A DNA stretch of 64,000 nucleotides from Psammoneis japonica (GCA_008632985.1 QPGO01000030.1:186001-250000), one strand, 5' to 3'. Positions 1 to 58,400 are shown, counted from the first letter of the stretch. Made by a program: numbers and translations. Notes: generated from the sequence alone by a model not told the origin.

Positions 1-10
1 GAGGAAACCC

Positions 11-1857
11 ATGATTAACGGACGGCTTAATCTGCAACCCAAGAAATGGATGGACAGGACCCACATGCTGCCCCCGGCACCAGGACCGAACGATCCCCGA
101 GAGGTCAAGAGCGCCGTCCTAGACCACTCATTGCGCACCATTCGTGAAGGGGAAGGTGCTTGGCAAGCCAAGTGTGAACTGATGACCACTCATCTGGGCA
201 CACCGATGGTGATGACGCAAGCAAAACTTAGGATCGCCTCGTTCGACCTGTTGACACACCCCACCTGTGCATGCACGTTTGCAGGTGCAGTTGACTCAAA
301 CGTCAGAAACATCAACGTGCCAGCTGTCGACGGAGCAGCATTCCGGAACACAGCACGTCACGCAGTGTACGACGTAACCATCAACCCCGGCAACGCGGAC
401 CCAGTGCACGCACTTCGCACGCCAGTCCCAGCAGAGACGAGGCGCGTGTACGCGCGCTTGCCACTGATCGGAGGACAACTCCACCCGAACATCAACGGAG
501 CAACGATCCGATTCTTTGGACACGTGCACCAAACCATGCTTGCCGCAAACCAACCCATCGAGCTCAGCCTCAATGCGGAAACCTGCCTCAGCGAAGAGGC
601 CTTCCAAACATGGAAAAAAAGCATCTGCTGCAAGACGCTCTACGAGCACATAGCCCAACTCATGCCGTCCGCCTTCGTCGGAGATGGGGCAATCAAGTCC
701 GCCGCAAATCGATTGCAAGAATGCACCATGGTCACACAAGACCCAGTGACAGGAACCAAGAAAGGCAGATCCACCCAAGAGCATTTTGAGGCATTCTCCA
801 GCATCGCAGCAGAGCTCGACACGAACCACCCATGCCCAGTCAACCTCGCATGCACATGCTGCTACTCCTTGCCAATGAAATTGCAGGAAAAACTCCACAC
901 CAAGGGTCACAGCCCCCCTGAGGTGTGCAACGGGAATGAGGAACAACTGGCAAATCTCAACACAGCCAAGCAAAGGGCAACGGAGTGTGAACTCGAACTC
1001 AAGATAGAACTCGACACTGTCAAGAATGCGGCAAACAGACGAGGACAAAACCAGTCAGTGGTTATGATGGCTAACCCCAACATCGGAACTCACCAATTCC
1101 CAACGGAAACTCCAGCAAGCATTCCCGGATGCGCAGCCATGCCCAACCCTGCCGCCATTCCTGGATGCGCAGCCACCCCCAACAGCGCACACCCTGGAAC
1201 ACAATCGACCACCCCACAAACGGCACAGCCGACACCAGGAACATTGGCCCACAGTTCAGCAGTGCCAATGGCGACGTTCGGCCCAACGCAACTGTCCACA
1301 TTGCTCTCGGATGCAGCACAAAGAGCCCTCACACAAGATGTCAATGTCACCGACGACACCCCATGTGTCATGTTCCTGTCCACAGCCGAGCAAGCCATGC
1401 GCCAGGCCAGCGGCATGACAGCTCCATGCAAATGTTGGGGCTGCGATGGCATGCACAAATGGGCTGACTGTGACAAACGGAACGACCCCAACGCAAAAGC
1501 AAAAGCAATGGTCAAGATGCAAGAGTTGCGAGAACAATGGCGCGAGAAACGCAGGGCGAGGAACTCCTCACACCAACCAGCGTTGAAACGCACCATGTTG
1601 AGCGAACCAGAGGTGACGGAAAACTGGGAGAGGCTTGGATTCCCCAACAGCAAGGTGGCAAAACAGGTGCACACATTAGCTGCCCCAGAAACATCCAACA
1701 AGAGGCGCAAGCAGATCTGCAAGACCATGTCCACCTTGCTCGCCCAGAAAGACGAGGACAGCCAGATCCACGGAACCCCGGATGTCACACTGTTCACGAC
1801 AATTCGAGCAATGCAAGGCACCATCCCAAACGCACCACTCGACATGTCAGCGGATCT
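11..1857 (+). pseudogene. gag-like region of the Gypsy element
   Basis: Long ORF with a CCHC-type knuckle CWGCDGMHKWADC (~1433-1471), lying upstream of pol. It runs into the N-gap. Confidence 0.75.
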
Positions 1858-2184
1858 NNNNNNNNNNNNNNNNNNNNNNNNNNNNNNNNNNNNNNNNNNN
1901 NNNNNNNNNNNNNNNNNNNNNNNNNNNNNNNNNNNNNNNNNNNNNNNNNNNNNNNNNNNNNNNNNNNNNNNNNNNNNNNNNNNNNNNNNNNNNNNNNNNN
2001 NNNNNNNNNNNNNNNNNNNNNNNNNNNNNNNNNNNNNNNNNNNNNNNNNNNNNNNNNNNNNNNNNNNNNNNNNNNNNNNNNNNNNNNNNNNNNNNNNNNN
2101 NNNNNNNNNNNNNNNNNNNNNNNNNNNNNNNNNNNNNNNNNNNNNNNNNNNNNNNNNNNNNNNNNNNNNNNNNNNNNNNNNNNN

Positions 2185-5100
2185 CATCCCCTTTCTAAGG
2201 AAGACAAAGGGAATGTGGTCGTTCGATGAGCCTCCACAACTCCACATCCCGATGCTCAACGCCACATTCAACGTGACGTGTGTGCCACCGTCATGCAGGG
2301 ACCCGCCCCAACGTCGGAACATCCCGTCAATCTCGACCACGCTCTCAACCTGCTCAATTGAGGAAGGACTCGACATCAACGAGCAGGAATGACAACTGGA
2401 GCAGTGTCTGTCGCCGCCCTGTAGGAACCTGTTAATGAAATGCCCATTGCGCACGAGCAGACACAGATTTGGGTCGGTGTCGGCAACACAAGAGACACTG
2501 GCGACACTCAAGACTTGCCAACCTACGGGCATCAAGTCATTTGCGGCATCTTCAGTGACTACAAAGGAGACAGAGGCAGCCAAGAAAATGAGAGACGGTT
2601 CCAAACCTGTGGTGACCGAGAAACGACCGCACCGCCCCCCGATCAAAAGCACATGTGAAGAGCCAGATTGGGAGCCCGACGAATTCTCGCACATGGAAGT
2701 GTTGTTCAGGGAACATGGCAACGTCCCACATAAGAACAAACACGAGATCCCAACCCGAACTGACGTGATCAAATACGACGATCAAAAACACAAGACGGAA
2801 TTTGAAGAAATGATCCAGTGGGATGACTGCCCGGAAGACAAGCGACAGGATGTCGAACAGACACTCAAACAGCACTGGGACGTGTTCGCTCCCGAGGGCA
2901 TGAAAAAGCCGGTGTCAGGCTTCGAGTTTAACATCGATGCTGGACCAATCAAACCTGTTTGTTGCAAGGATCCAAGATGCGGACCACACGAATCAAGAAT
3001 TGTGACGCAGTTGGTCGAAGGTCTGGAGAAAAATGGAATCGTGGAAGACGATTACGGCCCCTGGGGAGCCCTGGTCGTCTTAGCAGCAAAACCGCACCAA
3101 GGACACAAGCATTGGTCAGAGTGCGTCTGGCGGCCATGCGTGTCATGCAGGGCACTGAACGCTGTCACGAGACCATTCGCCTTTCCAACGAGATGATGCG
3201 ATGACGCTGCGAGAGACATTGGGCCGTCCCGACATTTCATCACGATGGACTTACTTTGGGGGCATTGGCAAATGCCACTGTCCGATGCCGCCAAGGAAAA
3301 AAACGGCATTCTTCGCACCCAACGGGAAGAAACACTTCAACCGAATGCCAACGGGTGTCAAGAACGCATGCCAAGCACACCGCTGTGTCATCGAAGCTGT
3401 CAAAAAGGACTGGGAAAACACAGCACGGGAGTTGAACATGGGAGACGTAAAAATGATGAGTGGAAGAGACATCCCAGGATGCGGCAGTCAAAACATCATC
3501 GACGACATCATCTTACACTCCACGCAGACAACGCGGCTCCTCCAGTGCTTCAAAGTGGTCCTGGCGATGTTCCAAAAGTGTCGCATCACCGTGTCACTGA
3601 AAAAGTGTTGTTTCCTCCCGAAAGCAGCGGTGTTCGTCGGACTGGACATAGAACCAGAAGGAAACAAACCGGCAAAAGACAAACTTCCACTGTTTGAGAA
3701 CCTCAGGCTCAAGCGGCCTCTAACTTTTGGAGACCTGCGGTTGTTCATTGGGCTCCTGGGATTCTGCCAAGAATGGATGCCCCTGTGCGAGATCCGAACA
3801 GCACCGTGGCGACGACACCAAAAGAAGATGCCACCCGGCTTGCACACCCAAGAGGAGGAACGCGAGTGTTTAGAAAAGAACTGGTCAGAGAAGGACGAGG
3901 AACTCAGAATCGAATCGCTGGACGAGATCAAACAACGACCCACCTTGACAAGACCAAACTTCAACAGAAGGTTTTACCTCAAAACCGACTTCAGCAAGCA
4001 TGGCGCAGCAGCGGTCTTGTTGCAAGCCGACCCCGACGACCCGGAAGCGCCAGCCGAAGAAGAACGTCTCAAAACACGACCGGCCCCGCGAAGCAAATTC
4101 GAAATGAAACGCAACACCAAGAAACTGCGACTCCGACCCATTGCTTTCTTCTCACAACGGAGCACACAGGCACAAAGCGCTTGCCATTCGCACACAGGAG
4201 AAGTGTGGGCTGGTTTAGTGGGAATGAGGAAATTCAAACGACATTTGCTGGGAAGCGAATTTACCTGGCTTACGGACTGCAACGGAGCCCAAAAGTTCCT
4301 CCACCCCGTCACCGAAGAAATGCTCACGCACCAACACCAGCGATGGCGCATGGAAATGTCGATGTACGATCACACAGGAGAACACAGGGACAATTCCATG
4401 ATGGCCGAGCCCGACATCCTCACCAGATGCAATTGGTGGACGGAAACGTGGCGGTCAGGCGGCGCGGCACAACCGATTGAGACCCGAGAACCTTGCGGAC
4501 CTCATCCTTTCACGAGCATGCTGGCAACGGCAGCCCCCATAAAACACGACCCGATGCCTTTCAGCAACGTGAAGATGCAGGTGCACGGGCCAGCAACCGG
4601 AGCCAAAACACCACTGGCACAACAAGAGAGCAACTCACGAGCGATCACACTGCACAACGCCGCCACCAACAACACAGAAAGCGCATGCGAGGAAATTGGT
4701 GTAGAAGCACTAACAAGTGCACTCATCGAGGACCGAGTCGAACTCAAGTTCAACCCGAACTCCGAGCTGACACCAGCCGGTTGCGCACCCACAACAGAAT
4801 GGCTGGACCAAGTGAAGCAGGACAGCAACGAGCACACATCGCAGGTGGAGTGGCTCATCGCTGCAGACGGCGGAACACAAGACTTAGAATGGGACCAGAA
4901 AGAAATGGATGAATTCAAAGAATTGGCAATTACCTCCAAAGAAAAGCAAAACCTGCAAGCCCCAATCGTCTTTAGGGACCGACGAGACACACACCGAGTC
5001 ACCCCGGAAAACAACCCACACAAGTGGGTAGACACAGAACTCCAGTGGGACAGACTCGAGGTTAAACTGCAAGGCACACGACACGGCAGCCCCACACAAA

Positions 5101-8084
5101 GCTGCCACTCAGTGCTGACAGCAACAAAGGATCCCGAGGTTTTAGAGACGATGCAGTTCGAAGAACAAGAACCCGGCAGCATGTTGCCTTACCTGGAACA
5201 ATGGGACAGTTCCACCGACGACATCACGAGAGAACGCGAACTCGCCGAAGTCGAACGACAGCTGCCAGACGTGCTTCCAGACTCACCACACAAACCCAGA
5301 GCAACAAAGAGGGTGCAGAGACCCAACGAGGCAGTGTGGACACCAGTGTACGACGTCGAGCACCCAGCCCCACCCTTGCGGCTCAAGGAAAACACGTGGT
5401 ACGAAAGCCCATTCGCAATCGAAGTGCACGACCACTTCGAGCACGAAAGCGGAATCCGCAGGATCAGACTCCACGAGCTCGTCAACATGATGGGATTCCA
5501 AGGTGTCACGGCGGAAAGGCTCAAGCTGATGCATCACGACACAGTCCTCGACCACCCAGCGGTCACACCACCAAAACAAGTGGTCAGTGCAGCATTGCAA
5601 GGACTGATTTTAGCAGAGCAAAGGGCACAATTACGGACACAAGAGGTCTTGCCAGCCAGAGACGCAAGCCCAATGGAGATGCTGCTAACCGCACTCCAAT
5701 CTACACCGGCATGGGAGTTGAATGGCATTGCCACCCTTCCCTTGCCATCAAAGAGCGACTGGCAAGAAGCCTCCCAGCAAGAACCGGATGTCAAACCATG
5801 CATCGACGCACTAGAAGCGGGCACCAAGCTTGACAAGTCCAAATTAATGAACAAGGAGTTCAGCAAGGAATTCCAACACGGAAGACTCGGGACCGAGGAG
5901 GGTGTCCTGTGCCGGCACGAAGGGAAGAAGCAAAGCCTGTTGAGACAAATCAGGACAAGAGCAGTGCCAAAAAGATGCAGGCAGACCGTCTTCTCAGCAC
6001 TGCACGTCTCACCTTGTGCAGGACACTCAAGCTACGAAAAAACCTGCTGGAAGATCGCCGCGAGGTTTTGGTGGCCGGCAATGGCTGCAAATGTGAGGGA
6101 ATGGACGTTGGGATGTGCAATGTGCCAAGCAGTCAATGTCACTAGCCACGAAGCACAACAAATCATGAAGACCATGCAAGCCGACGCACCGTTCGACACA
6201 GCAGTTATGGACGTGTGGACACCTGGACGAGTGGCAGTGAGAAAGAATGCGGCAAATGCATTGGGCTGCCTAGACTCAATGACAGGATTCGCAAGCATCA
6301 CATTTCTTACCTCTTGCACCTCAGAGGACGCAGCAAGAGCCGCGTTCCACGCGTTCTTCGTCCCCCACGGTCTGCCGAGACTCGCACTCGTAGACGCAGG
6401 GCGACAGTTCGCCGGACTCGTGTTGCAGCTGTGCAGCCTGTTGGGCATGCAAGCCCACCCAGCAACAAGAGAGAACCACAAGGCCATTTTGTGTGAGAGG
6501 TTCTTTAGACACCTGAACAAGATGGAGCACATGCAAACGGCAGATTGCCAATCCTCAAACGAATGGACGCTCGGAGCTGCTTTCGCGACCTGCGCATGGA
6601 ACAGCGCACCGGTGGAAGGCACTGACATCGTGAGAAGCAGAGCAGCAATGGGACGCGACTTCCCTTTTCCTGTCGACACTCACCAGGAAGCAACAGTCCC
6701 AAGGGAGAACACCAATCAGGGAGAGCAAGTCCCAGAACACATGAGCGCGACCTTCCCTCTCCTTGCAAAGCAGCGACTCACATTGAAGCTGCTCACAGAA
6801 GACCGCAGAAACCATCACAGAACACTCGCCAACAAAAACCGTTCAGGAAACAAGTTCCAACCAGGTGATCTGGCAATCGTAAGGAAACAAGTGCAAACGT
6901 CAGAAAAAGGCCCGGGGAAACTGATGATCAAAGCAAGAGGGCCACACAGAGTGTTGGAGAAGATGCACGAAGGAGCACACAACATCCAACGAATGCCTTT
7001 CACAGAAGGCATCAGACGAGTTGGCAAAACATGCAAAGAAAGCTCAGCACGTGTGGAAGCCATGCCTTCGACGCTGGCACTCCATAAGACCACCAACGGT
7101 GCAGACACTCGCATGGCAACGATAGAACGCCCTGTGGTAAACCACCCCCTGGAGAACACGTTGGGCACAGTGGATTTCGGCAGATGCGCCAAGACGGCAC
7201 CAGAAAACAACTTCGCTCATGACAAGATTGAGGATGTGCACCCCACCTTCCAGATGTGTGACGACGACGACAACAATGAAAACAACGACAGGGACAATAG
7301 CGCCGCAACAACTCCAACTGTCAACGATGAAGCAGAAAATGATGCCAGCCGAAGCGACGGCAACAACGTCCTGCAGGATGCGCAGACAGACGACACCACC
7401 GAAACCGGCCCATCATCAGCATCCACAAGTGCATCACCAGAGACAGTTGCTGCCGACGCCGAAAACACCAATGCCAAGCTCAGACGATCAAACAGAAGGA
7501 AACGGACACCTTCGAAACTACAAGATGATGACGATGTCAGGAAACGAGGACGCGCGAACAACAGGGCGATGCACGAAAACCTGTGGAACAAGGTGCAAGA
7601 ATCTCGAGACAAACTGTTTTTCATCAGTCACACCGCCAAGGGAACCACTCGCCGTTGCTGGCATCTTGTTCAGGTGGACCCAGCAAACACCGACCCGACC
7701 ATGGCGAAGCATTTTGGACAATGTTGTGTGGTGTGGTACATTCGACACCAAGGGGACAGCACCACCAGAAAAACAAGAAACTGTCGGTTTTGGCCAGAGA
7801 CACACGAGCTTTGTACAGACAACACTCTTGGGCCTATGATGCAAGTCAAGCCAGGGAAAGCAAAGGCCTTTTTAGAACGGCACCCACACACGCACCAAGC
7901 CCACTCGGACGAAATAGATTTGACGAAGCAAAGCATCCTCGGGCCTTTCAACTTCGCACCACCAAAAGATCACCAACAAGAAAGCCACCGAATCAGTGAT
8001 GCACATTGGACAGAACTACAAGCCCTTGCACGACTGCAACACATGCGGACGGACGACACAGACGAAGTGATGCCATTGCGCTGA
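2185..8084 (+). pseudogene. pol: RT - RNase H - inserted MTase-like domain - integrase - C-terminal extension
   Basis: RT motifs GPWGALVVL, WRPCVSCRALN, FITMDLLWGHWQ, NIIDDIIL. RNase H motifs FYLKTDFS and FTWLTDC. Integrase HHCC zinc finger (H-x6-H...CAMC, ~6000-6125), core MDVW/VDAG/CERFF, and a GPY-like ARGPHRV. In-frame TGA at 2390 and 3194 (probably CGA->TGA), and a frame change in the A-run at ~3297-3303. Confidence 0.9.
4638..5620 (+). other. C5 DNA-methyltransferase-like domain inserted in pol, catalytically degenerate
   Basis: Motif order matches C5 MTases: ITLHNAATNNTESACEEIG (motif I position), VEWLIAADGG (IV), APIVFRD (VI), LQGTRHGSPTQSCHSVL (VIII), VYDVEHPAPPL (TRD), IRRIRLHELVNMMGF (IX), AVTPPKQVVSAALQGL (X). 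Confidence 0.65.
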
Positions 8085-8610
8085 GTGGTGAATCTGTGTG
8101 ATGGACACCATCATGCACCCTCGCGTCTCACCCGTTTGAACTTTTCCTTTGTGCTCACAATAACTTTAGGATAACTTTACATTGCTGGACGAGCATCCAC
8201 TAGACTGAGTGCTGTGCACACTGACCTTGTGGAGGTTGTTTGGAGCAGGCTGGAGGAGTCGACACTCCAAGCACGAAGCTGAGCAAGGAATGAGCCAGGA
8301 ACAGCTAAATCCCATGTCCCACTCCAGTCATCGCGATGACCTGCAAAAGGAGGCGCGAATCAATGGACAAACAACAAGTAAGATGACTTGCAGGTTGGCA
8401 CTTGTTGGTCCTGACGCGCAGCGACATTGTGCCGTGCACCCACGGACGGACCCTGGCTGGCTCATGAAAGGCTGTGACGCGGAAGACTTGGACAGCAGAC
8501 CTCTAAGCACCGCATTCACGACACTGGTGCCCCCTTGAGTAAGCTTAGTGTAGGGAGGAGAGGGACGCCTCAACTCTCATGACTTCGCAAGCGCCTGGGA
8601 ATACACTGGT

Positions 8611-12049: not shown

Positions 12050-14545
12050 CTACGGCGTCAATTCACGACACAATACAAACGCGACGACCGACACAGCTCC
12101 AGAGAACTGGCAGTCTCTGGTAGAGCCAGCTCCCACCTGCTGCATCCATAGAGTGGCAGGGGACAATGCACTGCTACACAGCTGGCACAGCACTTGTGCC
12201 CCCGTGCAGCACCTCCACCAGCAGGGCCCTGCTCCTGGCACTCTCTCTCAAGGGAGAGCAGACTGCTGCTGCTGTGCACAGAGCCAGAAAATGTGCAGTG
12301 TGCAAGAACGCACCATGAGCTGCTGCAACGTTGAAGCTGTGGGGACAAACAAACACAACAAACAAACACGTTTTGATCATTCTCAAATGCTGAGAATTCC
12401 AAAATGATGTTGAGAACCTCAGTTTGGAGAACTCTCACAAGAGCCCCAAGCTCGACAAGGCCATCATGATGCACACGGTTGCATGGGTGCAAAGAGTGGT
12501 CTCTCAACAAAAGATTTGGTGCTGGAATTTTTGTGGGAACCATGCATCATGAGACAAGTTTGCCAGCCTCTCTGTGAATCTTCAGCTGCTTTGGACTTCT
12601 GTTGGCGCAGCAAGTCGCCCCCAAGCACCAGGCAACAAGTGACATCAACCCATGAGTTCTTGCTGGGGCCGGAGGACAACTTGACTTTTTTGCTTGGGGG
12701 GGGGGCACAAGGTGCAGCTTTGTCCTTGCAAAGCACCAATCAATTGACAACAAGGGACAGGAAAGCTGGGGGGGGCAATTGATGGCCCCGCTCCCTTTTT
12801 CTCTTCTTTTTTTGCCCCGTTGATGTTTTCTGCTGGCAAGCAAGGAGTGGCCTTGCATCTTCCTTTTGCAATGCAGGCAGGGGACAATCTCAGGACATTT
12901 GGCACCTTGAAGTCTCTCCTCCTGTGCAGTGTTGATGTGAGAGGTGGAGGTGGCGCAGCATGATTGTTGAACTTTGGTGCTGGCGCGGGTGTGCCACGGA
13001 GCTGAGCAACTCTTTTGTGCTCACACCTTCAATGTGACAGTTGTTTTGTTGTTGTCACATTGGCTGTTTTCTTCTGGAATCTTGCTTGCTCCTCTGGTGA
13101 GTTGAGAGAGTGTCTGCGCATGACATTCTGGAGAGGAGCGTCAAATGACAGCATTTCCTGAGCTCTGGCTTGGGTTTTTTCTCTTGTGTCAAGACAAGTG
13201 CTGTCGCACCCCAAGTTCACACAAATTGTGCTGCAGCCATGACCCATTTGTGTGTGATCTTTTCTTTTTATTTTCCCAGCTGGTGATGCAAAGATGCTTC
13301 TTTGGCACGTGCAGTGGTCATGACATGTGGTTTGTCAAAGGAGAAGTCACAAGTGTGCACTGAAGCCATGTGGCTGGCAGCAAGCAACAAAGCCAACCAG
13401 AGTTGTTTCCAAGGAGCAGATGCAAGCCCATGACCTTGCTTCAACATTTGGCAGAGTTGGCACTGAGTGATTTGTGGCACATTTCAGCACAAGGCAAAAC
13501 ATGCAGGCAAATGAACTCTCCACATTTCCAAATTTTGCTTGCCACTCATGCAACACACCCCACAACACAACAAAAAAGTCTGTGGACAAGCAAACAAGAA
13601 ACATGAAGCACTCCACTGTGAAATTAGCTGCACACAGCAGCAGCTGTTTTTTGCCATGTGGCAACAAAAACAGAGCCATTGGAAGCAGCACATTTCATTT
13701 TTTGTTGCCGTCTCATTCTCTTGCCCTTGTCAAGGGGGAAGCAAGGAGCTCTGCTTCATTTTTCTCAAAGAAGAAGCGTGCACCTTTTTGTCATGAAGCA
13801 ATTTGCAAATGTGCACCATGGCAACCCAGCATGACAGCAATGTCATGTCTTTGTTGCTCATCCCCAGTTGCCTCCATGCAAGCTGTGTCCATGTTTGTGT
13901 TCGCCATTTTTTCATGGCCCCACCATCAATTTGATTGATGCAGCAAGGAGCCCATGCTTCTTTCATTGCATCTAAAGCAATGTCCCCTGTGTGATCATTT
14001 GATTGATTTTTGCTCCCTCTTTCTTGTGGTGTGTGGGTGGGAAGAGATGCTGCAGCCTGATCTTGTCCCTGGTGCTTGTGCTGGATTTTCACTGATGGTC
14101 AGTGCAGTTCTTGTGATTGAACCTGTGGCAATAGTTTGTGCATTTCTTCATTTGGGTTGCTGCGATGATGTGGTTGCTCTTTCCTCCCTTCTTTTGTCTC
14201 TCAATTGCAGAAGCAGCTTGAAAATGGAGTGTGGAGTCATTGCCCAAGCCAGAACTGACTTTTGGTCAAGATCTAGAGCTTTTCTGCTTGATCACTTGCT
14301 CCAACAGGATGTGTCTTGCTGTGACAGCTGTGCAAATTGCACTGAGATCCTTGAGAATGTCTTGGGAATGTTTTGGCGTCTTTGTCTTGGGAATGCTTTT
14401 GGCGTCTTTGCCATGTGCGGCACTTGCTGGCAGCCTTTTTTCTGCTGGCAGCCTCGTTTCCTGACAATGTCACACATGCCAAACTCTTCTCTCAAAGAGA
14501 CCGACAACTGGCTCCTGAAGAAACACCCGGTGGCGAGCATGGGTC
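12050..14545. other. TpA- and CpG-depleted hypermutated block of unidentified origin
   Basis: Only a handful of TA seen by eye (e.g. 13625, 13973, 14132, 14274). TG/CA-rich, with overlapping Cys/His-rich ORFs in all frames. Confidence 0.8.
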
Positions 14546-36089: not shown

Positions 36090-36169
36090 CAACTCATGTG
36101 CTGCACTGCAGCAATTGATTGCTGCCAGCAGTGTGATGCAGGGAACAACAAAATCCAACCACACCTGCA

Positions 36170-37904: not shown

Positions 37905-38085
37905 GATGACAACCCAGCTTCTTCTGGATGATGGCAACATTCACAGTCATCTGCCAATGGCTGCTGTGTGGCTGCTTTGTTTGAGTTTGGGGGGGGAGCT
38001 GATGGCAACCCAAGAGCTTCCTCCAGATGACAGCAACATTCACAGTCTGCCAATGACTGCCATGTGGCTGCTCTGTGTGAGTGTG
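37905..38085. repeat. ~100 bp tandem duplication
   Basis: caacattcacagtc..tgccaatg.ctgc..tgtggctgct occurs twice. Confidence 0.7.
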
Positions 38086-38809
38086 TGGAGGTTTCTCTGA
38101 TGCAACCAGAAGAGAGCAGGTTGAAGCTGAAAAAACAGCTTTTTGATGGTGGCAGAGGCACAGCACGCCATTTGGTGGTTTTGCTCTGATGCAAAGAAGG
38201 ACTCACCTTTCAGTCAGCAGCAGCTTCTGCTCTGGAACAGATTGCTGCAAAACCAAAAGCCACAACTGAAGCTTTGCACACAAGAGCATGATGGGTGAGA
38301 AGGTCCTTCCATTGTCGACATGTTTTGGTGGCACAGCCAGTGGTGCTGCCTGCTTGCTGCTCGTCCACACATGGCAAGTGGGCATGAGATGTGATGTGAG
38401 CAATGCACAGCAACAAGCCAAAAGTTTGGTGGTCATGTGACGGCTCTGCTGAGAACAGTTGCAGCCACACATCAAAAAAAAAGAGAGCACACGGAGCTGA
38501 TGGTGTTAAATTGACACATTGCCAGCAGAGCCACTCTGCTCTCCTCTCTGCCGGCAGCCACTGCTAGCTCTACAGTAGAGCTAGCTAGCTGCTAGCTAGA
38601 GTAGAGAGCTAGCTCTAGCTAGCTAAGCTCTAGAGTAGAGAGAGCACCGGCAGCGGAGTCTACACACGGGCACACACATAATTCCGTTCCGAGAAAAAGT
38701 TCCTCCGCCCAATTCCCATGACCTTCCATTTTATTTTCTTATTCAACGTTGTATAGGCAGCATGCCTGGGACGAAATGCGTGTTTACGAAGTGTGATGCG
38801 TGTTTGTTG

Positions 38810-42681: not shown

Positions 42682-42769
42682 TGTTGCTTCCGTGATAAAG
42701 TACGTATGTACAGTGTGAATTATGAACACAGGAAATTATTTGTCATCACGTTGCAGCGATTCTTACTTC

Positions 42770-45700
42770 ATGTGACACTCATTGGGAGCTGACAAAATGG
42801 ACATTCTGCACAACACACTGTGCTGCCAGTGCCCAGAGTGGAGAGCACCTGCCACTGAAGCAGCAACTGCAACTCCTCTTCCACCTGACATGCCGCACCA
42901 TGCATCACACTGTGTCCTTCCCCACCCACCCATCTCACCTCTCTTCCCACTCTCTGCGTGCAGCAGCCCCACCCACACCACACCACCCACGCTGCACCGT
43001 GGTCAGCGCCCCCCCCCCAAGGGCTTGTTCATTTTTGGTGGCTGGGGCCTGGAGCAGAGAGCAGCCAGGCACAGCTCTCTTCTGCTGTTGGTGGACGACT
43101 CCAAGCAGCTGGCAGCAGGCTGCTGTGGTGGACAGCTCGCCAACAGGCACCGGCGGGCCCTGCTGCACATGCTGCAGTGTCACCATGCAGCATTGTGTGT
43201 TGCACACATGCAAACTCCCATCACAATGTGGGTGCTCCGTGACAAACTGTCACATCTGTGGCCAAACTCAGCAGTCACACACACACTCACTCAGTCAATC
43301 AGCTGCAAAAAAGACTTTGGCATCACTTGCTGGGCAGTCCTCAGTGACAAACAACTCAAAGACTGACACTTGTTGTGCTGCCAAATGGCTTCAACATTGC
43401 CCAAAGTCCACAAGAGGTCACCCGACTGGTGTGGATTGACCACATGAAACATGAACAGCAAAGTTGAAAGTGTCCCACCCTGCAGCACAAATGTCAAATG
43501 TCATTGTTGGTGCTGCCCAGCAGCCAGCCCAGCATGATTTTGCATTCCTGGCATTGTTGTTCTGCTTGCAGTCATTGGTGAGATTGGCGAGCTGCTCTCA
43601 TGTTGTTCAGCCAGGCTTGGAGGCATTCCGGGGGGGGGGGCATGCAGCAGTTCTTCCTGGGTTCCTTCGAATGACCTCCTGTTGATTTGTGGAATTTGCT
43701 GGGGGTGGCTGCCTGGAGCAAACACACCTCAAACCTGCTCATGGATGGCTTCAGTTTTTGTGCTTCTGTTGGCATTGCACTGGCCCGGGGGACTGCGCCA
43801 TTGCAGTGTTCCAATTGACCCCATGAGACATCACAGACCTTGACAATGAGTGATCTCACCCACCTTTGCCCTTGTTTCCTGGAGTTGCCCCCCACTGGCA
43901 GCAGGCATGCTGCGCAAATTTCCAGTCAAGTGAAAGACAGCCTTTGACAAACTTGTCCCATCCTGTCCAATCTTGGGAGTCTGCAGTGCACTGAACCAGT
44001 TCATCTCATGCTTGAACGTGCTGCGTTGGGGTGCCATTTTTCCATTCCCCAAGTCTCTGCAGGACAATTCCATGATTTCTGGGTTGGCCCCAGTCTTGTG
44101 CATCCATTCTTGGAGCATGTCCAGAGATTCATGCCATTCTTTTGCTGCGCTCTGCAACTGGCACTGCAACAGGCATGGGTCAAGTCTTCCACTGAGAAAA
44201 AGGTGCTGACTGAGGGCGTCACTGCACTGGGGATTTGCCCCACAAGTGCAGCATCTTGTTAACCCCGTGTGGCCCAGATGCATGCTTTGCCACCCATCGT
44301 TGTCTGGATGGCTTTAGATCCAATGTTGCTTTTGCTTGGGAGTCCCAACTGATTTCTCCAATGATCAGTGAAGAGAAACGGCCCTTGTCCATCCACCACT
44401 CTGCAAGAGTTTCCTGCCATCAATGGCATGATGGAGTGTGTCCGTTGTGTTGGGTGTGACTTTCCTGTTCCCAATCCAGAGCAACCACATCCCTTCTTCC
44501 TTCTTGCACTCTTTGTTTGGCAGGGATGCCTGGGGCATTGGCCACTCATTCTTTGGCCACAAGATCCATGTCAACATTCAATCTGGAGGGGCAATCCAAA
44601 TGAGTGAGCTGTTGACAATGCATTGCACTGTTTGTGATTTGTGGTGAGCTCACAGTCAAGGTTGTTGGAATTCTTTAAAGCCTGATGATTGTTGCAGCCA
44701 ATGGAGACATGTCCCTGGGTCACACCATGGAGGCTTGCCCCAGCCACCACCATGCCACAACAAGCAGAGTGCACACAGTGTGCAGCAGTGCTGCAAAATG
44801 TGTGATGCACTGCACAGTGGTCTCTTTTCTGCAGGACCAAGCAGTCCCTTGCCACCCTGGTCAAGTGATCTCAAAGTTTCTTTGTGAGTCACACATGAGT
44901 GAGTGGCTTCAACCCCACTCCCACCACAAACCATCCAGTGTGGTTTGCCACATGAAATCATTCATGAACATGATTGTTGCCCCGAACCACTGAGTGGTTT
45001 GCACAGTGCACCAAAAATGACCTGACACAAACGATGTGAAAAAACAAATGATGTGAAAGACAACAAGGGCATCACACAAGTCAACACAGTGGTGTTTGTT
45101 TGAAACAATGCACGCTTCATTTTAGCAGCTTGCTTGATTCTTAAAAGTCACTTTTCTGTCTTGGTTTCATGGCCGCACCCTCTGCATGTGTTTTTCTGCA
45201 GAAGCTCTGGCACAGATGTTGCCTTTCTCCGATGGTGTCACGATGGTTCCCACCTGCCTGTTCAGACCATTTCTTTTGTTGATGTGCCTTTGTTGTTTTG
45301 TTGTCATTGGCAATCTTGTGCAGTGGAAAATGATTGGCATTGAGCCCTTTTGGCTCCTTTGCTTGGCACTCTTCTCGGCGTTTTTGCTTCTCTTGTGCAA
45401 AGAAGTTTCCACACAAATTTCAGCACAAATTCTGCATTTTCTGCAAGTCATTTCAGAAGGACAACTTGGCAAAATTGCCAACTGCTCTCTCTCTCTCCAC
45501 ACCTTTCCTGTCAATGACCCCCCTGAGAAAGTGTTGAGCCTGCTGTGAGTGGCTTGACTTTCAGCCCAAGTGGGGCTGAGTTTGGCCACAGGGGTGCAAG
45601 AGTTGACAGCATGAAATCTGTGTTGTGGCTGGAGCTCACACATGATGATGCATGAGAATCTCAGCATCAACATGTTTGTAAGTTCTGAGGGGGTCGGGAC

Positions 45701-48700
45701 CTTGCATGGCAACTCCTCCCACAGACAAAAGGGTGGAAGTTTGGGCTGTCAGCAATGACTTTGTGCCACCCTTCATGCACAAAGACCATGAAAAGCAACT
45801 CCTCATTTTTGAATGTTGCATTTTCAGAACACTTGTTCTTGGGTTTCACACATGCACATGTGTGCACCTGACACCAGGTGCTCACAAGTGCTGCTTTGCT
45901 CAATCTGGCACAGTGCAGTGCAGCATGGAGTGTGTTGACCAGTGGTCAGTGCCTTCCCAAAGGGCTTGTTCCTGTCAGCCAACTCACTGCAGTGCTGCTG
46001 GCAACAGGTTGGTGCAGTGCATTGAAATGGCATGCTCCAGGAAAGAGCAAGTTTGCTGTGCTTTTTGTTTGGCATGTGCTGCTGGTGCAGAGCAGTCTCT
46101 TGCCATGGCATCAATTTTGAAAATTCACTCAGCCGGGCACCATCAAATGATTCTGGCCTTCAAAGCCACTGCCTTGTTGCAACAGCAAAAGTCACAAACA
46201 TGACAGATGCCATGCAGGGTTGAGCATGGAAAGGAGTGTGGGGGCACCCAGAACAGCAACTCATCTGGAGCATCATGGCCAAAACAGAAATGTTTTGACA
46301 AACCACATTTTGTGCAAAAAAATGTGATTGCTCTGACTGACAATGACGCCACCAGAAATGGGGTGCCAATGTTGACAATGTGCCAACCCAAAAAGACAAC
46401 ATGACAATTTCAAGTTCTCCAGAGCCCTGCAGGAGAAGAGTGCACCAAAGGCATTGATCAGTGCACACTTGACAAGCCAACTGAGAAGAGGCAGCTGATG
46501 TGGTGGAGACATCATGGTTGGGTTCACAAGGTCACACCTGAGGAAAATGTGAAAGGGGCATGGAAGCCACTTTGTCAGAGCAATGTGTGGCTGGATTCAA
46601 TGATGCCAGGGTGGAAACCTGGGGGTGCATTTCTCGTGCAAGGGTGACAATGTTGCAACTCACCATGTCAGCAGTGGGGGTGGAAGATTGGCCAGTGTGG
46701 TGCCCAAGAGCTGTGTGTTCTCAACTCTCTGATTCAGCAGATGTGTGAAGAGAGCCAATTGGTGGGTGAAAAAAAAAGCAGCCAATGGTGGTCACAAAGG
46801 GCAAAAGAACTCAGCATGCACTTGGCTCCCATCACCCAGAAGTCCCGTTGCAGCAGGAAGCTGGCTGTCCAGCAGAGTGTCTTTTGTTCTCCTGTCACCC
46901 AGTCCAGAGAAGTGGCGCAGACAAAAAGGTTTTTTGAGTGGATGTTTGGATGTGATGATTTGGACATGAGTCCTCAAGTGGTTGGTGGAGTGGCAGAATC
47001 TCGACATTTGGGGCAGCGTCACAGCCGCAGTGAGATTCTACACAACCAGCTCTTTCTCCATCACCATTGTCAGCCTCTGACTCTAGATGGCAATGCAAGC
47101 TGGACCACAGTGTCAAGTGATCTCAAACATTTCCTGGACTGTGATTTGGAAGATGTGTCTGGTTAGATCCCAAGTGTGAAGCTCTTGATTGAGGCACACT
47201 CAAAGGTCACTGTGTGGCTTGCAGCAGCTTGATGGACTCAATGTGCAGGCAGCAGCTGTGTGCAAGCAAAATGACATCTGCTGATGCATCTTACAATGTC
47301 ACAAACTGAATCGCCAGTTGGAAAAAGCTGTGAGTGCGCAAAGCTTTGGTTGCCAGTGAGGATGAGTGCTTTGAATCCTCAACGGGTTTCTTTGCTCTCT
47401 CCAACAACCATCTTGAGGTCTTTTTGGCTTTCTCTCAAATGGCTGAACAAGGTTTTCAACTGGATTTTGTCTTTTCTGATTCACTCAGACATGATCAAGG
47501 AATGTTGGACTCACTGCATTGAGGCACATTCAACAGTGCTAAGTTGCTAACATCAGCAGAGCAAGCAATTTTTCCAAAACTGGAACTCTTGGGAGAGCCA
47601 GAGCACTTCGCCACATGCAAAAATGCTGTTGCAGCTGTTGACACATTTGAATGTGCAGTCAACAAAAGCAATGATGCAGGTGCCATTTCACTTGCACTTG
47701 ACATGAGTTTTTTTGTCTTTGAGGACAGCATGAGAAACAAAACATCATCAGTCATGGGATCTCTTGCCTGTCCAAATGTTCTCATGATTCATTTGAGCAA
47801 GATTGAACAAAAGAAATAATTTTTCCCAACCGCAACTCTTTCTTTCTCAGAAACATCTTGTCTTGGTTGGCAGCAACTGTCAAAATGATGTTGTGATTTT
47901 GACAAAGGATTTCAAGGATGCTGGTTTCATGGTGCCCCCATTCCAGAATCTTTTGGACTTTTGTGGCCATGGGGGTTGTGGACTTGCTTGTTGAATGCAT
48001 GTGCAGAGGGCAATGTGGACTTGATGCTTTGTCAGCAATTCTGTTGGAGCAACATTTCCCAAAACTGGTGCTGTGTTGATCCCATGTGTGGAACAGACCT
48101 GGAGGTCTTGCCACAGATGCACTTGACTGCACTGCACAAGATTGTGAGGCAGGCACACAAGTGCATGAAATGCTGAAGGACTTGCCTGATCTTTCCACCC
48201 ATTTGAGGAAGGACAAGCTGAAGGTGGGGTTGGAGGCAGATGCACTTCCATGCCAAAAGACTGATGTCAAGCCAGTTTCAAGAGGCCAGATTGTCTGCTG
48301 CTCTGGCTGCACTGTGGCAGGATTGGAGAGCTTTTGGGTTCCCAAGTTTTGCTTGAGGTGATCAGCAGGCTGAAGCTGGACTCAGTTTGCCATTTGCCTG
48401 AGTTGGGAACAGACGGTGCAAATGAAACAGTGCACAACACAAGATTCACCCCCAGCAGAGGTGTCGCAACCTTTGCACGTTTCAAAATTAATGCAATGTT
48501 GAGGGAGGGATTCCTTTTGTCCCTGCAGAAGAATGCAGGTGGCTTTGTCACATGGCTGGGAAGCCTGGAGAAAATGAAACTGAGGCAGATGTGATGAGCA
48601 GAGCAACGAGCAGCCAAAAGATCAAATTTTGAATGTTTGCATGATGACATCAAGCCCTTCTGAGATGAACCCAGTGAAGCCTCTGATGGCAGGCCAGGCT

Positions 48701-50630
48701 GTGACAATTGAGAGTCAACAATTGATTCAGATCATGCATGTGCCACTGGCATGCTTGGACAAAAATCTGGAAGAGAGGGAAGTGAGAGACACAGAAGAAT
48801 CTGCAGAAGGTGTTGAGCACTTTGTCAATGACTCCAATGAGAACAGCAATGATGACAACTTCTCAGGGACCCTCCAACAAGAACTCCAGAAAAGAGGCTG
48901 CAAACCATGGGACACAGTGCAGTCTTTGATTGAGTCAGCAGACAAGCTGGCATGTCCAGTTGGGAGCAAATGTGGAGCCACCTTCTGTGATCAATGCAGC
49001 ATGTCTTGCAAATGAGGAGGCAAATGAGTGCAAGCCCAAGATGTTGTTTGCCAACTTTTGGGTGATGAGCTCCATTTCATGAGACATGTTTCAGCACCCA
49101 TGTGCCACAGCTGGGAAGCCACATTTTTGCATCACTTGCATGTTGCCATCTTTGCACATGAGGGCACAACAGAAAAAAGTTTGTGGCTTTCTTTCAAGCA
49201 AAGGAAAAACTTGGCAGTTCACAGCAGACCACAACTTTTGACACACACACCAGCAAATGAGTCTCGAGACCAGCCCCGCGACATCTGCTGTTGCTGCTTT
49301 GCCACCATGCAAAGGTTCTGTGTGACTGCTTCCAGGATGAGATTGACTCAGAGATCCAGATGCCTTTGTGCTCAATGTGCAGGCCTGAGCCAACGCCAAG
49401 TGTGTCTTGGAGGCTGTCTGAGACCCAAAATGCATGTCTCTTTTTGCACCCCAAGAAAGGACAGGGATGGGCTGCAGCTGCTGCACTGTTTTCAGGGAAC
49501 AGGAGCAGCTGAGTCCAGAGGCATTCTCAATGCATGCAATCATTTGGTCAAGATTGAGCTGGTTCAGCGCACTTGGTGTGCATGTTGCTCACAATTGTCG
49601 TCATTTTCAGAGCTTGCATTTTTCAGAGAAATGCTGCCCAGGCTTCCACAGGGCTCTGGTTCATGGCGCCGCCCAAATGCTCTGGCTGGGCATCTTGTGA
49701 TGAAGGCATCTCTGTCAACAGGTTCTCACATTGGGAGAGTCATGCCCCATCGTCACATTTTGAGTCAAGTGGCAGCCAATTGAGGGAGCCTTTCAAAGAG
49801 CTGCTGCCATCTTGGAGGCTCATGTCAAGGCCAATGGCCTCAGAATTGCCGCACACATCTCTTGTCACAGAAGGAAGAGTGGTGGCTGCCAAAGACACTG
49901 ACGCTGGAAAGGTTTGCGACTGAAAAGGTCAGAGTCCTTGAGTGCATGAGCAAAACCTTCCAAACCATGTGTGAAAAGTGGAGTTGACATTTTGTTGAGA
50001 CCCCACCTCAGCTGGAAAAGGCAAAGAACTTGAGATTTTTCCAAATTGTGTTGGCAACTCGATTCCTTGCTGCAAGCAGTGGCGGACAAATTTGAAGAAG
50101 GCTGCTGCAGCTGGAAAAGTGTTGGAGAGAATGAGGCACTTTGAAAGCTCTCGACCACAACCAGAGGATGGGACTCAAGTTCCCCAGCCCTTCTAACCAG
50201 AGCCTGTGAACAGACCAGATGGCCAAGAAGCAGTTGCCACATCAACAGATGCCCGTCAAGGCTCAACAGCTGCAGCTTCATCTCCTCATCAAAATTGGCC
50301 ACCAGGTGCCAAGGCTCTTGCCCAGATCCAAAACCTTGTCCACCAATGGTGCCAGTGTCATGCTTCCCTTTCCCCACATTGTTTCCAGTGCTGTTGCAAC
50401 AAGCCACAATTCTTCCACATCCATTCTTGTGCAACCCACACATGTCATCAAATGCAGCAGTTGGCTCAGAAAACACCTGAAAAGCATCGTAAAAGAGTGG
50501 CTCGCAAGAAATGACAGGATCCCCGATGCAAAGCACCACATGCACTTGGTGCACACAACCACTGGCAAATGCAGTTTCCTTCCTTTTTCCTCTTCTTCTT
50601 TGTTTCTCGCTTCTCTCGCTCCGCGCCACT
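42770..50630. other. TpA/CpG-depleted hypermutated block, probably nested elements
   Basis: Same composition as the other blocks; sharp edges. Confidence 0.85.
43500..47300 (-). mobile_element. decayed non-LTR retrotransposon (LINE, RNase H-bearing diatom type); boundaries approximate
   Basis: Minus strand ~43975-43790 reads QDWTGWDKFVKGCLSLDWKFAQHACCQW..SRKQGQRWVRSLIVKVCDVSWGQLEHCNG, typical of diatom LINE ORF2 C-termini. A Cys/His knuckle lies at ~44260-44200 and RNase H-like GHVSIGCNNHQAL at ~44715-44675. Confidence 0.7.
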
Positions 50631-55139: not shown

Positions 55140-56611
55140 ATGACTGTTGCAGATCGACTGAAATCGTTGGATGCCAATGGTTCAGTGGCGAATGAATTCA
55201 GAGTGCGAACAGCTCAAGGTGCTGTGTTTAGCGTCGTCACGGTTGTCGGTATGTATGATTTTTCTGTGGATAAACACAAGCCCGTACCTTCATTGATACT
55301 GACTGCGTCGCATTATGTTGTTCCCCTTAGCCATTTTCTACTTGATATACACGGAACTCAGATTCAACTTTCAGACTACCGTGTTGGAGAAAGTGCATGT
55401 GAACGCCACGACGCCGGCTGGTCTGTAAGCTGAAAGTCGCAGCATTTGCCTTTTATCTTGTCTATTGTTGTTTTTCCAACTCCATTCTCTTGTCTATTGT
55501 TATTAATCGTCCGCAAAAATACAGAGAGATGGAGTTCGACATCACTCTGCATTCTGTTCCTTGCGCTCTTTTAAGCGTAGATGCAAACGACCCCACAGGA
55601 CAGCCGCAATCTCTTCATCTCGATAAGCGACATCACGTTTGGAAGCACCGAATGGATAAAGACGGGAATTTGATTGGAGCCCGCAGTCGATTGGAGTTTG
55701 GTAGCACACTCAAGAACGAAGAGCATTTGAGAGACCTTGCCGTCAAAGCGTCTAGTAGAAGAGATGAACAAGACGATGACGTGAATCAAGAATGCGGTAG
55801 TTGTTATGGAGCGGGGGACGAGGGCGAGTGCTGCAACTCTTGCGATGACGTTAAGAGAGCTTATATGCGAAAAGGATGGACGCTCGAAGAAGAAGCCACT
55901 GTGGAACAATGTAAGAACGAAAAGACTTCAGAGGAAGAAGAGGGAGAGGGCTGTAATGTGCATGGTGTTGTTGCATTGAGTACGGGGGGAGGTAACCTCC
56001 ATCTGGCTCCTGGACGTGAGTTGGAGGACTTTGGAAAGCATCAAAAGAAGGTTCCGACTATTATGGACTTTGTGCTTCGAACGTTTGAACAGTTCAATGT
56101 TTCTCACACGGTTCACAAGATTCGATTTGGCGCAGAGTATCCTGGACACTACCATCAGTTAGACGGGGTGGGTCGTAATGTAACTGATTCATACGGAATG
56201 TATCAGTATTACTTTCAGGTAAGCAATGCACTGCGTGGGAAGTACTGTCGTGGCTGATTGAATGTATTGCTCACGAGTGCTTTCCCGTTGCGTTCTTTTT
56301 TGGTATGGTAATGTCAGGTGGTGCCCACCCTTTACAAGTTCCTCAATGGAACGACCATACAAACAAATCAATACAGTGTTACGGAGCACATGAGACACGT
56401 TAATCCAGGCTCTGGTCGCGGCTTGCCCGGCGTCTTTTTCTTTTATCAAGTTTCTGCGTTGCACGTGGAAATCGAGGAGTATCGGCGTGGATGGGTCGCC
56501 TTCTTCACCAGTGTATGTGCGATTGTGGGTGGCGTTGTGACTCTCTTCGGAATGTTGGACCAGTATGTCTATTCTTCAATGGAAAAAGGAGGCCGCCAGT
56601 TAGCCTATTGA
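55140..56611 (+). CDS. ERGIC3: ER-Golgi intermediate compartment protein 3 (Erv46-like), 4 exons
   Basis: CGSCYGA..CCNSCDDVKRAY, EGCNVHG, YQYYFQVVPT, LPGVFFFY, CAIVGGV. Confidence 0.93.
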
Positions 56612-56677
56612 ATAAAGCGCAGCAAAGTGTAATTTTTGAAGCTCAAGCCTCCATCTACCTGGATACACTACTAATCT

Positions 56678-58400
56678 AGTTTCAAAAAATGAATATCGCA
56701 ACAAAACTTTATGTTTACTGAATCGGTTCAAGACAAGTCCAATAAAAGAAATAGCCAATTGAACTCCTACTGCCTGGCTCAAACCAATGATTACTGTTGA
56801 TGTCAGGAAACTAACGCAGCTAGTTGCGCCTTCGCTCTCCCAAACCGTCCAAAAGAAATTGAGGAGTATGTTTGAACCGGGAACCAAGAGATAGATCGCA
56901 GGAAGGATGCAAAACCACAAATCGCTAGAACTGCGTTGCACTTCTGGTACATTGATTTCAAATTCGTCGACGATCAGGACTCGAATCCGATCCCGTGAAG
57001 CGTGACATCTTCGCTGTCGGCATCTGTTTGTGAATCAATCACACTCTCTTCGGTCTTAAGATGGCGACGGTAACGCGCAACTCCTTAATGTTGAATGCTT
57101 CTCCGAGGATCAAGAGATTATGAGCACAAATTGTAGTGAGAAAAAGCTTGGCCAACATTGGAGATGATCACAGGTTGGCTCCACTTCTCCTCAGGAGGAG
57201 ATGCTGTGATCTGAAAGCAATGCCCTTCAACAGGAAGCTCAACAAGACATGCTGCTGCTGCATGCCAGCCACTGCACCACACATGGAAAACAGCAAAGGA
57301 AGCCACACACCATTTGTGTGCCAGTCTGGAACTTCCTCACAAGACTGACTCGCTGGCCTGATCATGTTTCACATCTGTCTTCACCGGTGTGCACTTCCCC
57401 CCAAAGCCCGATCCAAGCCCCAAAAGCGGCAAGAGCAAAGGAGCAATTTTTGTCAAAAACAAGGAAAAACTCCAATGGCCAGTGTGCTGCCAAAATCTGT
57501 TTTGTTAAGAGAAGCCACAAAAGTGTGCCCACGGAGAAGCCAAAACAGAGAACAGAGCACCACACAACCAAAAAGCACGTGTTGTCAGGAGGGAGAATCT
57601 GGGCTGCAGCTTCAGAGCTCAGGGGAAAGCAATGGGAGTGCCAATCAGCATTTCTGCCACAACTGCAACATGTGGATTATTCATCCAAGAATGCCAAAGA
57701 ACGGGGCTCAAAAGTGGAGCCCAACACTGAGAGTGGCAAACCCCGTTTCAGCTTGAGCTCCACTGAACACTGAAGTGTGTGTGCCAGAAGGAGATCATGA
57801 TGGCTGGTGTGAGCAAAATGGTTGAGTGTGCGCCAGTGTGTGTTTCTTGGCATGGTGTGCTGCCTCAGTCCAGTTGCAGAAGGCTTGCTTTCTTTGGCCA
57901 TGTCCACATTTTTTTTCAAAATTTTGCAAGACATCAGCACATGAACACAGCTTCAAAGTCTTGGCTCACTTTGCAGCAATGGTTGAGACAGACCATTTGT
58001 CCTTGTTCACTTCAGATGATGAAACGAGGAGCCAATGATCATCAAGCTTGATGCAACGAAATTCTGCAGTGCTGTTGGGGTTGTCACTTGAAAAATGAAA
58101 ACATTCACACATCACATTTACAAGACCACCACAGTGCACACCAGTGGAGATCAAACCTTCATGTGTGAAAGGCTTTGCAAACTGCCAGGTCTTTCGACAC
58201 AGGGGATTTGAGTTCATCAGGAATGACAGCTGGCAACAGAATGTCACGCCCTTGCTCTCGTCTGGGTCCGGTTTTGAGGCTCCACGCTAGTTGATCGATG
58301 TCGACATTCTTCCGGTGTCATTGTCGACTTTCTCAACTCGGATGGCATGACCCGAGCGCGACTGATGATGACATCCTACCTGCAATCCATGGGCACGAAA
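56678..58400 (-). pseudogene. multi-pass membrane protein pseudogene, possibly ThrE/DUF1212 exporter-like; central part hypermutated
   Basis: Unmutated 3' part reads FCILPAIYLLVPGS. Hydrophobic helices continue into the TA-less block (VVWCSVLCFGFSVG, FALAAFGAWIGL, WHTNGVWLPLLFSMCG) with stops and frameshifts. Confidence 0.45.

Follow-up and report, generated by a model that had tools for sequence, protein, structure and literature searches.

The closest described system to the one examined here is a hypermutation restricted to TpA dinucleotides in the chlorarachniophyte alga Bigelowiella natans. According to the available part of a 2026 preprint (Mettrop et al., bioRxiv 10.64898/2026.01.13.699255), an integrated giant virus and a virophage took 231 of the 302 nuclear mutations found in mutation-accumulation lines; A>G and T>C changes made up 230 of these 231, every one at TpA, and arose at about 6e-7 per site and generation, a regional mutation rate raised about 1000-fold. 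The same text describes 124 TpA-poor, CpA+TpG-rich clusters in the B. natans genome, mostly unannotatable, with reverse-transcriptase domains enriched among the TpA-poor genes. Its authors propose an ADAT2-like adenine deaminase, and neither diatoms nor CpG are mentioned in the part available. Here, we analyze a window of 64,000 nucleotides from Psammoneis japonica (GCA_008632985.1 QPGO01000030.1:186001-250000), in which five sharply bounded blocks, lying among the genes of gene-rich diatom nuclear DNA, are depleted of TA and enriched in TG and CA. The initial annotation of this window supposed that such a process had not been described before, a supposition that the B. natans preprint overturns; since the same TpA-only hypermutation has been reported there, the diatom case is not wholly new. 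A literature search for the TpA signature in diatoms found no report, and the accessible portions of PMC9998398, PMC2806351 and PMC6604790 make no mention of it. The blocks are therefore best regarded as placing the recently described TpA hypermutation in a new lineage. Features that they add are saturation, CpG loss that ends at the same edges, a retrotransposon as target and a preference for TAY flanks.

Other known systems provide further points of comparison. Diatom transposons are CpG-methylated (PMC9998398, PMC2806351), and the DNMT4 enzymes that diatoms carry are relatives of fungal RID (PMC9998398), as far as the available text of these papers goes. ADARs are described as metazoan in the accessible part of the B. 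natans preprint (bioRxiv 10.64898/2026.01.13.699255), which also cites activity of the ADAT2 of amphioxus and trypanosomes on both A and C in DNA.

Observed/expected dinucleotide ratios (O/E) were computed within the window, in sliding windows and per block, and a three-state hidden Markov model (HMM) on pyrimidine-purine (YR) steps was used to call the blocks. Their log10 likelihood ratios against normal DNA were 77, 79, 458, 296 and 38 for blocks 1-5, respectively.

10-8496: block 1, TA O/E 0.20, CG 0.83; HMM state 'TA-low only'
12177-14524: block 2, TA O/E 0.05, CG 0.18; both depleted, without recognisable coding remnant
27872-38549: block 3, TA O/E 0.02, CG 0.12; both depleted
42769-50601: block 4, TA O/E 0.03, CG 0.14; both depleted, without recognisable coding remnant
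57137-58245: block 5, TA O/E 0.04, CG 0.22; flanked by an ERGIC-type gene and a 3-beta-HSD gene

Non-block DNA of the window has a TA O/E of 0.60 and a CG O/E of 1.01. TG and CA each reach an O/E of 1.7-2.0 in blocks 2-5 versus 1.11-1.14 outside the blocks, with nearly equal G+C (0.496 in blocks, 0.480 in non-block DNA), and the five longest TA-free runs measure 1901, 1756, 1705, 1576 and 1496 bases. When TA>TG/CA and CG>TG/CA changes alone were simulated on the normal DNA of the window, the 16-dinucleotide profile of the blocks was reproduced (r = 0.976), with a root-mean-square deviation from the blocks of 0.10 versus 0.39 for unmutated normal DNA. The borders are sharp: TA and CG densities change over about 50-100 bases, and at all eight edges of blocks 2-5 the two losses co-terminate within about 100 bases. 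These results, from a sliding-window check run on the window only, reproduce the five TA-poor blocks of the initial annotation to within about 150 bases, together with the TG/CA richness and the normal TA of the intervening DNA that it had reported. Its picture of TA loss holds for all five blocks; what it missed is that CG is co-depleted in blocks 2-5, with block 1 alone having lost TA only. No common motif was seen when the block edges were compared. A CTAG-rich low-complexity stretch at 38565-38640, with TA every 4-6 bases, lies untouched immediately beyond the right edge of block 3, and two runs of 16-17 G occur at its left edge (27715-27731) and just inside it (28485-28500).

The direction of change can be read from block 1, a Ty3/gypsy retroelement that continues past the left end of the window and is interrupted by an N run at 1858-2184.

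3159-8084, plus strand: gypsy pol open frame of 1641 codons, with reverse transcriptase, RNase H and integrase

A tblastn comparison of 38 diatom gypsy proteins with the window gave 85 matches, all in 2426-8081 and none in blocks 2-5. The TA-poor zone stops about 410 bases beyond the pol stop, and long terminal repeats (LTRs), sought in the loci of three relatives, were not found. Tyrosine (Tyr) makes up 0.49% of the pol frame versus 2.45% in 20 relatives. In an alignment of 20 diatom relatives (31-38% identity) to the block 1 pol, 16 columns carried a conserved Tyr, defined as Tyr in at least 70% of the relatives. At these columns, block 1 has Cys in eight (TGC/TGT), His in six (CAC), Tyr in one and Phe in one, whereas other conserved residue classes were retained in 406 of 563 columns (Fisher p = 9e-8 for the comparison with Tyr). 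With each of the 20 relatives taken as the target in turn, as a control, Tyr was retained in 11-15 of 13-19 columns and Cys was found in none. Conserved Ile columns were retained in 10 of 28 cases and read Met in six and Thr in two, as ATA>ATG/ACA predicts. Arg was retained in 44 of 55 columns, which indicates that block 1 has undergone no CpG effect. Given that the Tyr columns now read Cys or His, the element was once a normal, Tyr-bearing retrotransposon that later underwent TA>TG and TA>CA changes on both strands without CpG loss. Under the genetic code, TA>TG/CA cannot create a stop codon, which is why the pol frame stays open and which bears out the origin first proposed for the dense Cys/His-rich open frames of the blocks.

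The gypsy family is not TA-poor by nature. Over the matched region, TA O/E is at least 0.29 in 78 of 79 related metagenome loci (median 0.59), versus 0.20 in block 1, which contradicts the possibility, raised when the blocks were first noted, that the family was already TA-free. Among these relatives, the metagenome contig L074, covering the gypsy integrase region, has a TA O/E of 0.11 and a CG O/E of 0.96 across its whole 1760 bases, with one in-frame stop. It was compared with 16 relatives of 68-76% DNA identity, using columns with at least 75% agreement, and of the 24 conserved TA bases, 12 have changed in L074 alone, by A>G or T>C in 11 cases. For eight control relatives the corresponding number is 0-2 of 22-24, and the change rate of L074 elsewhere is ordinary (0.089). 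To judge from these substitutions, L074 is a second element hypermutated at TpA only. Another relative, L019:7-1734, has a CG O/E of 0.35 and a mildly low TA O/E of 0.43 in the matched region and may represent CpG decay without TpA hypermutation.

For block 3, a polarity reference exists within the window itself. The window was compared with itself in a purine/pyrimidine alphabet, chosen because the proposed changes are all transitions, and three copies of a local gene were aligned.

37314-37606, plus strand: hypermutated partial copy of a local multi-copy gene, covering its 5' end, inside block 3
38818-40240, plus strand: normal-composition copy of the family, polarity reference, starting about 270 bases outside block 3
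24764-26246, plus strand: second normal-composition copy, polarity reference, 84% identical to the copy at 38809-40250

The two normal copies form a 1.5 kb direct repeat flanking block 3, at 24743-26263 and 38809-40250, 84% identical as DNA and 95% identical in purine/pyrimidine terms. The block 3 copy matches them at 178 and 141 bits, the best reversed-sequence control reaching 74 bits. In the three-way alignment, the 12 TA sites common to both normal copies read TG (6), CA (3) or other (3) in the block 3 copy and never TA, and the 17 common CG sites read CA (8), TG (5) or other (4) and never CG. Thus, 22 of these 29 TA and CG sites became TG or CA, and 19 of the 32 TG/CA sites common to both normal copies were retained. 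Word depth is 580-636 at the repeat (38.7-40.0 kb) versus about 60 elsewhere, which suggests about ten genome copies of the family, contig-derived word depth being a rough copy measure only. Because a family of about ten copies has normal TA, and one such copy starts as near as some 270 bases beyond block 3, targeting follows place rather than repetition. The open reading frame (ORF) of the normal copy at 38928-39665 has a signal-peptide-like N-terminus (MQASLLLF...); it gave no Pfam match and no relative in a word-indexed search of a large protein set. Taken together, the polarized comparisons for block 1, block 3 and L074 uphold the core of the initial annotation, namely region-restricted A>G/T>C change at TpA that is separate from CpG decay, including the substitution pattern it anticipated for a transposable element set against its relatives (14 of the 16 conserved Tyr columns read TGY or CAC).

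The remainder of block 3 is partly unique. Word depth at 28.0-34.0 kb is 66-86, the level of the flanks, and this part is single copy; at 34.0-37.3 kb it is 200-430, and this part is multi-copy. Among 40 of the 460 differences from other contigs, 36 lie in block 3; the window has TG/CA against TA in 14 of these and against CG in 14, with the opposite in 0. Transitions of any kind in sequence so rich in TG/CA would be expected to yield about 13 of 36, so the comparison is supportive only. The segment 34000-37340 is about 86-90% identical to further contigs from this sample, whose loose ends are normal in CG and TA; some of them belong to run X2, which is RNA-like.

Both strands were changed. 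The block 1 Tyr columns comprise eight TGY (sense A>G) and six CAC (sense T>C) outcomes, and in blocks 3 and 4 whether a site became TG or CA shows neither correlation with the outcome at the next site nor over-dispersion, so that the events were evidently single-site and on either strand. The sites that survive also carry information on context. Among the 40 surviving TA sites of blocks 2-5, RTAY (R, purine; Y, pyrimidine) is absent, where 27.8% would be expected (p = 2e-6), and YTAR accounts for 27; CG survivors show no flank preference. A per-strand 5'-TAY preference predicts an excess of YTGY+RCAR over YCAY+RTGR, and blocks 2-5 give a ratio of 1.47 and block 1 one of 1.40, versus 1.12 in a random-outcome simulation (p = 4e-8). 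The flanks thus point to a probable 5'-TAY preference on the strand whose A changes, or equally to 5'-RTA if T is the target. TadA-type enzymes recognise a U-A-C loop, which the 3' pyrimidine preference of the blocks may resemble.

The sequence of the blocks was compared with contigs from two sequencing runs. Run X1, at about 65x, contains 99% of the sampled words of 44.5-54.4 kb, and its Logan contigs match the blocks at a word depth of 47-73, the same as that of the flanking genes. A 4799-base X1 contig spans 28487-33284 with two differences, and others, with 0-2 differences, bridge the edges near 27.87, 38.55 and 42.77 kb. Mis-assembly of the blocks is therefore unlikely, and the assembly artefact considered at the outset finds no counterpart in this separate Logan assembly, which reproduces the blocks and three edges, possibly from the same reads. 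In the single-copy part of block 3, X1 contigs read CG at 28207, where the window has CA, and TA at 32982, where the window has TG; these two of the four differences found there may be allelic remnants of recent events. Contigs of run X2 skip 84 and 87 bases with CT..AC ends at 27015-27100 and 27171-27259, as expected of GT..AG introns in a minus-strand gene. Given these intron-like skips, X2 (listed as 'DNA?') is probably transcript data, although no run containing the stretch is listed as RNA; it lacks cover at 28.0-34.0 kb and other parts, which says nothing about silence.

As a whole, the observations are best explained, with a probability of roughly 75%, if the blocks are selfish or decaying DNA subjected to TpA hypermutation at the DNA level on both strands, together with a separable CpG decay. 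Under this explanation, the five blocks are discrete selfish or decaying stretches set among ordinary diatom genes, in which a process acting on both DNA strands has turned almost every TpA into TpG or CpA. It works site by site, leaving no single-strand runs, prefers 5'-TAY, halts within about 100 bases at the edges, and tracks position rather than sequence family. The decay of CpG to TpG/CpA is a second, separable process, near complete in the four older blocks and absent from the retrotransposon. The comparisons above demonstrate the direction of change, its specificity for TpA, its occurrence on both strands, the sharpness of the borders and the independence from CpG loss. By analogy with what was measured in B. 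natans, the hypermutation probably takes place within the chromosome and serves in genome defence; its agent could be a TadA/ADAT2-like DNA adenine deaminase, and the CpG loss is plausibly due to cytosine methylation. We infer a fast TpA process and a slower CpG process, because block 1 and L074 have lost TA with CG intact and a strong coding signal, whereas blocks 2-5 have lost both dinucleotides and their coding signal.

Comparison with B. natans, as far as the available part of the preprint describes it, supports this assignment. In both organisms, only TpA changes, to TpG or CpA according to strand, within bounded regions that gain CpA+TpG and are mostly unannotatable. The likeness extends to direction (14 of 16 Tyr columns, 9 of 12 block 3 TA sites and 11 of 12 TA changes in L074) and to confinement, with five blocks whose edges span about 50-100 bases beside flanking genes with a TA O/E of 0.60. 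Unlike the chlorarachniophyte case, the host is a diatom and the blocks are saturated (TA O/E 0.02-0.05 versus 0.45 in the B. natans virus region). The targets differ in origin as well: foreign viral DNA in B. natans, and here an LTR-type retroelement (the gypsy element of block 1) as the identified target and one block, block 3, with a dead copy of a local orphan gene. The low CG O/E of blocks 2-5 (0.12-0.22) has no equivalent in the available text of the preprint, with which the CG values of block 1 and L074 (0.83 and 0.96) agree, and the TAY flank preference of the diatom blocks likewise stands apart from that account.

Fungal repeat-induced point mutation (RIP) resembles the present case in being a defence-like transition hypermutation that is confined to certain stretches and destroys their coding capacity. 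It was nevertheless rejected: RIP converts C>T mostly at CpA and so creates TpA, whereas here TA O/E is 0.02-0.20 and the direction is away from TA; moreover, RIP is triggered by repeats, whereas 6 kb of block 3 are single copy by depth and the adjoining family of about ten copies is untouched. Methylated-CpG decay matches the CG to TG/CA change of blocks 2-5, which is without flank preference and, in block 3, took 13 of 17 CG sites to TG or CA and kept none; however, TpA loss is beyond its reach, and it is absent from the TpA-depleted block 1 and L074. Animal ADAR/APOBEC editing shares enzyme-driven, clustered transitions in selfish elements, and ADAR shares a 5' U preference, but those enzymes act asymmetrically on one strand (RNA or cDNA), whereas both strands are changed here and a 3' pyrimidine is preferred. 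ADAR favours a 3' G. RNA editing of the ADAR type followed by reverse transcription was also rejected, as it would mark one strand, in contrast to the eight sense A>G and six sense T>C outcomes of block 1.

Alternative explanations differ mainly in the base that is attacked and in the time at which it happens. If thymine were the target, TET/JBP-type oxidation at 5'-RTA would yield 5-hydroxymethyl- or 5-formyluracil, which mispairs with G and gives T>C on either strand, with CpG lost through a 5-methylcytosine branch. In sequence data, an A>G change on one strand looks the same as a T>C change on the opposite one; the observed context is equally RTA, so that oxidation is an equally valid reading of these data, and both lost dinucleotides are self-complementary pyrimidine-purine steps in which the pyrimidine would flip. 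5-Formyluracil mispairs, and 5-hydroxymethyluracil occurs at TpA in dinoflagellates. We nonetheless consider this unlikely: nothing in this analysis points to a modified base of this kind in diatoms, adenine deamination is preferred by the B. natans authors in the available text, and the loss of TA without loss of CG in block 1 and L074 indicates that the two losses are not tightly coupled. The same dissociation bears on a single system that would remove both self-complementary YR dinucleotides, for example a deaminase attacking A as well as C in DNA and guided to the same domains. Such a system would account for the co-termination of TA and CG loss at eight of eight edges and for the fact that both losses yield only TG/CA, and the reported A and C activity of ADAT2 on DNA is in keeping with it; it too seems unlikely, in view of the CG O/E of 0.83-0.96 in block 1 and L074, the 44 of 55 Arg columns retained, and the B. 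natans spectrum, in which 230 of 231 mutations of the two viral regions were A>G or T>C, all at TpA, with CpG unmentioned in the part available. CG survivors have no flank preference, and methylated-CpG decay is the simpler account.

Hypermutation before or during integration, acting in an APOBEC-like manner on extrachromosomal DNA or cDNA, would mean that the blocks arrived already mutated, hence the sharpness of their edges (about 50-100 bases). In block 1, a retroelement, the TA-poor zone extends some 410 bases past the pol stop, which would suit such a course. It is quite improbable, however, because the strands were used about equally (eight TGY versus six CAC), unlike in single-strand cDNA editing, because block 3 carries a copy of a local gene family with a normal copy 270 bases outside, and because the mutations of B. 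natans, in the text available, arise in place in integrated DNA; the X1 differences at 28207 and 32982 in single-copy block 3, which may be allelic and recent, argue in the same direction. A sequencing, base-calling or polishing artefact on modified DNA could give a TG/CA mixture if symmetric TA and CG modification were misread, and X1 may be the same data as the assembly. We regard this as very improbable, given the separate Logan assembly with its 4799-base contig (two differences) and three edges crossed at flank depth, the loss of protein and period-3 signal from blocks 2-5, which an artefact at the level of reads would not cause, and the appearance of the signature in L074, which comes from an unrelated metagenome assembly. 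Hardly tenable, finally, is an intrinsic avoidance of TA (and CG) evolved by the elements themselves, with nothing mutated in the host. TA is mildly under-represented throughout the window (0.60) and in the relatives (median 0.59), which is in keeping with it, but invariant Tyr columns read Cys or His, 78 of 79 relatives keep a TA O/E of at least 0.29, and the normal family copies retain the TA and CG that are missing from the block 3 copy.

Several points weigh against explaining the blocks as hypermutated selfish or decaying DNA. Run X1, for which no library type is recorded, may be the data from which the assembly was made, so that it checks the assembler rather than the reads; accordingly, mis-assembly is addressed and a read-level artefact strictly is not. 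At 41 of 151 other positions, too, the block 3 copy departs from the normal ones, which implies that it is old, and ordinary decay could account for part of its TA/CG loss. It is also a dead copy from a family that looks like host genes, and 'foreign DNA' is shown for block 1 only. The context figures of block 1 (RTAY at 6 of 64 surviving TA sites, and a 5' T at the single surviving conserved Tyr codon) rest on small counts, and the per-strand context derived from its tetranucleotide excess is too noisy, with values below 0 and above 1. Among 413 kb of related metagenome loci, the signature appears in L074 only (4 of 1378 windows) and is thus not common among relatives. The CpG loss of blocks 2-5 lies outside the B. 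natans precedent, as far as its available text goes, and is read as a second process. Furthermore, blocks 2-5 yielded no identifiable protein remnant: of their 133 stop-to-stop ORFs of at least 90 amino acids, 0 reach the Pfam cut-off, the one weak match being CBP_BcsO (20.2 bits versus a cut-off of 27), and a search of 1.84 billion representative proteins gave 0 relatives for the ORF at 46648-47163 in block 4.

In blocks 2-5, the period-3 signal stays close to background, with weak peaks at 30.3-30.9, 36.0-36.9 and 46.2-47.1 kb. A Pro/Thr/Ser-rich open frame at 36194-36670 has the highest period-3 signal of these blocks. Block 3 also contains tandem repeats.

33114-34181: tandem repeat, period about 369 bases
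35497-36089: tandem repeat, period about 300 bases
37903-38091: tandem repeat, period about 96 bases

The stretches between the blocks encode ordinary products, including a dynamin, an ERGIC-type protein, a 3-beta-HSD-type dehydrogenase, a Tsr3-like ribosome biogenesis protein, a metacaspase, a PCI-domain protein and a gyrase-B/topoisomerase-II-like protein. The best relatives of the dynamin are from diatoms, with 89% identity to the closest and about 70% to proteins of Attheya, Nitzschia, Seminavis and Fragilariopsis. Between blocks 3 and 4 lies the gene for a pyrenoid shell protein.

41316-41981, minus strand: diatom pyrenoid shell protein gene (Pfam DiatomPyrShell, E = 1.9e-43)

Only one preprint, on one alga and with no enzyme identified in the text available (bioRxiv 10.64898/2026.01.13.699255), has described TpA-directed hypermutation of invading DNA up to now. 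The diatom footprint implies that the process is not peculiar to one species, and it provides a simple test for any genome: TA loss with TG/CA gain, Tyr replaced by Cys or His, and RTAY sites gone first. The suggested per-strand TAY motif narrows the search for an enzyme. The question thereby moves into diatoms, which include genetically tractable species. Moreover, the blocks give long open frames in all six frames, so that gene callers will report orphan Cys/His-rich proteins from them. A natural DNA adenine editor, if one acts here, would be of interest to genome engineers. A wider reading, possible but on balance doubtful, is that diatoms and chlorarachniophytes share an enzymatic DNA-editing defence, in which a TadA/ADAT-like adenine deaminase with a 5'-TAY preference would be steered to domains defined by position rather than to repeats, erasing TpA soon after silencing, with methylation-driven CpG loss following, until invaders become stop-poor, Tyr-free and unrecognisable. 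If true, this shared defence would represent a natural eukaryotic editor of adenine in double-stranded DNA and an old defence across a major eukaryotic supergroup.

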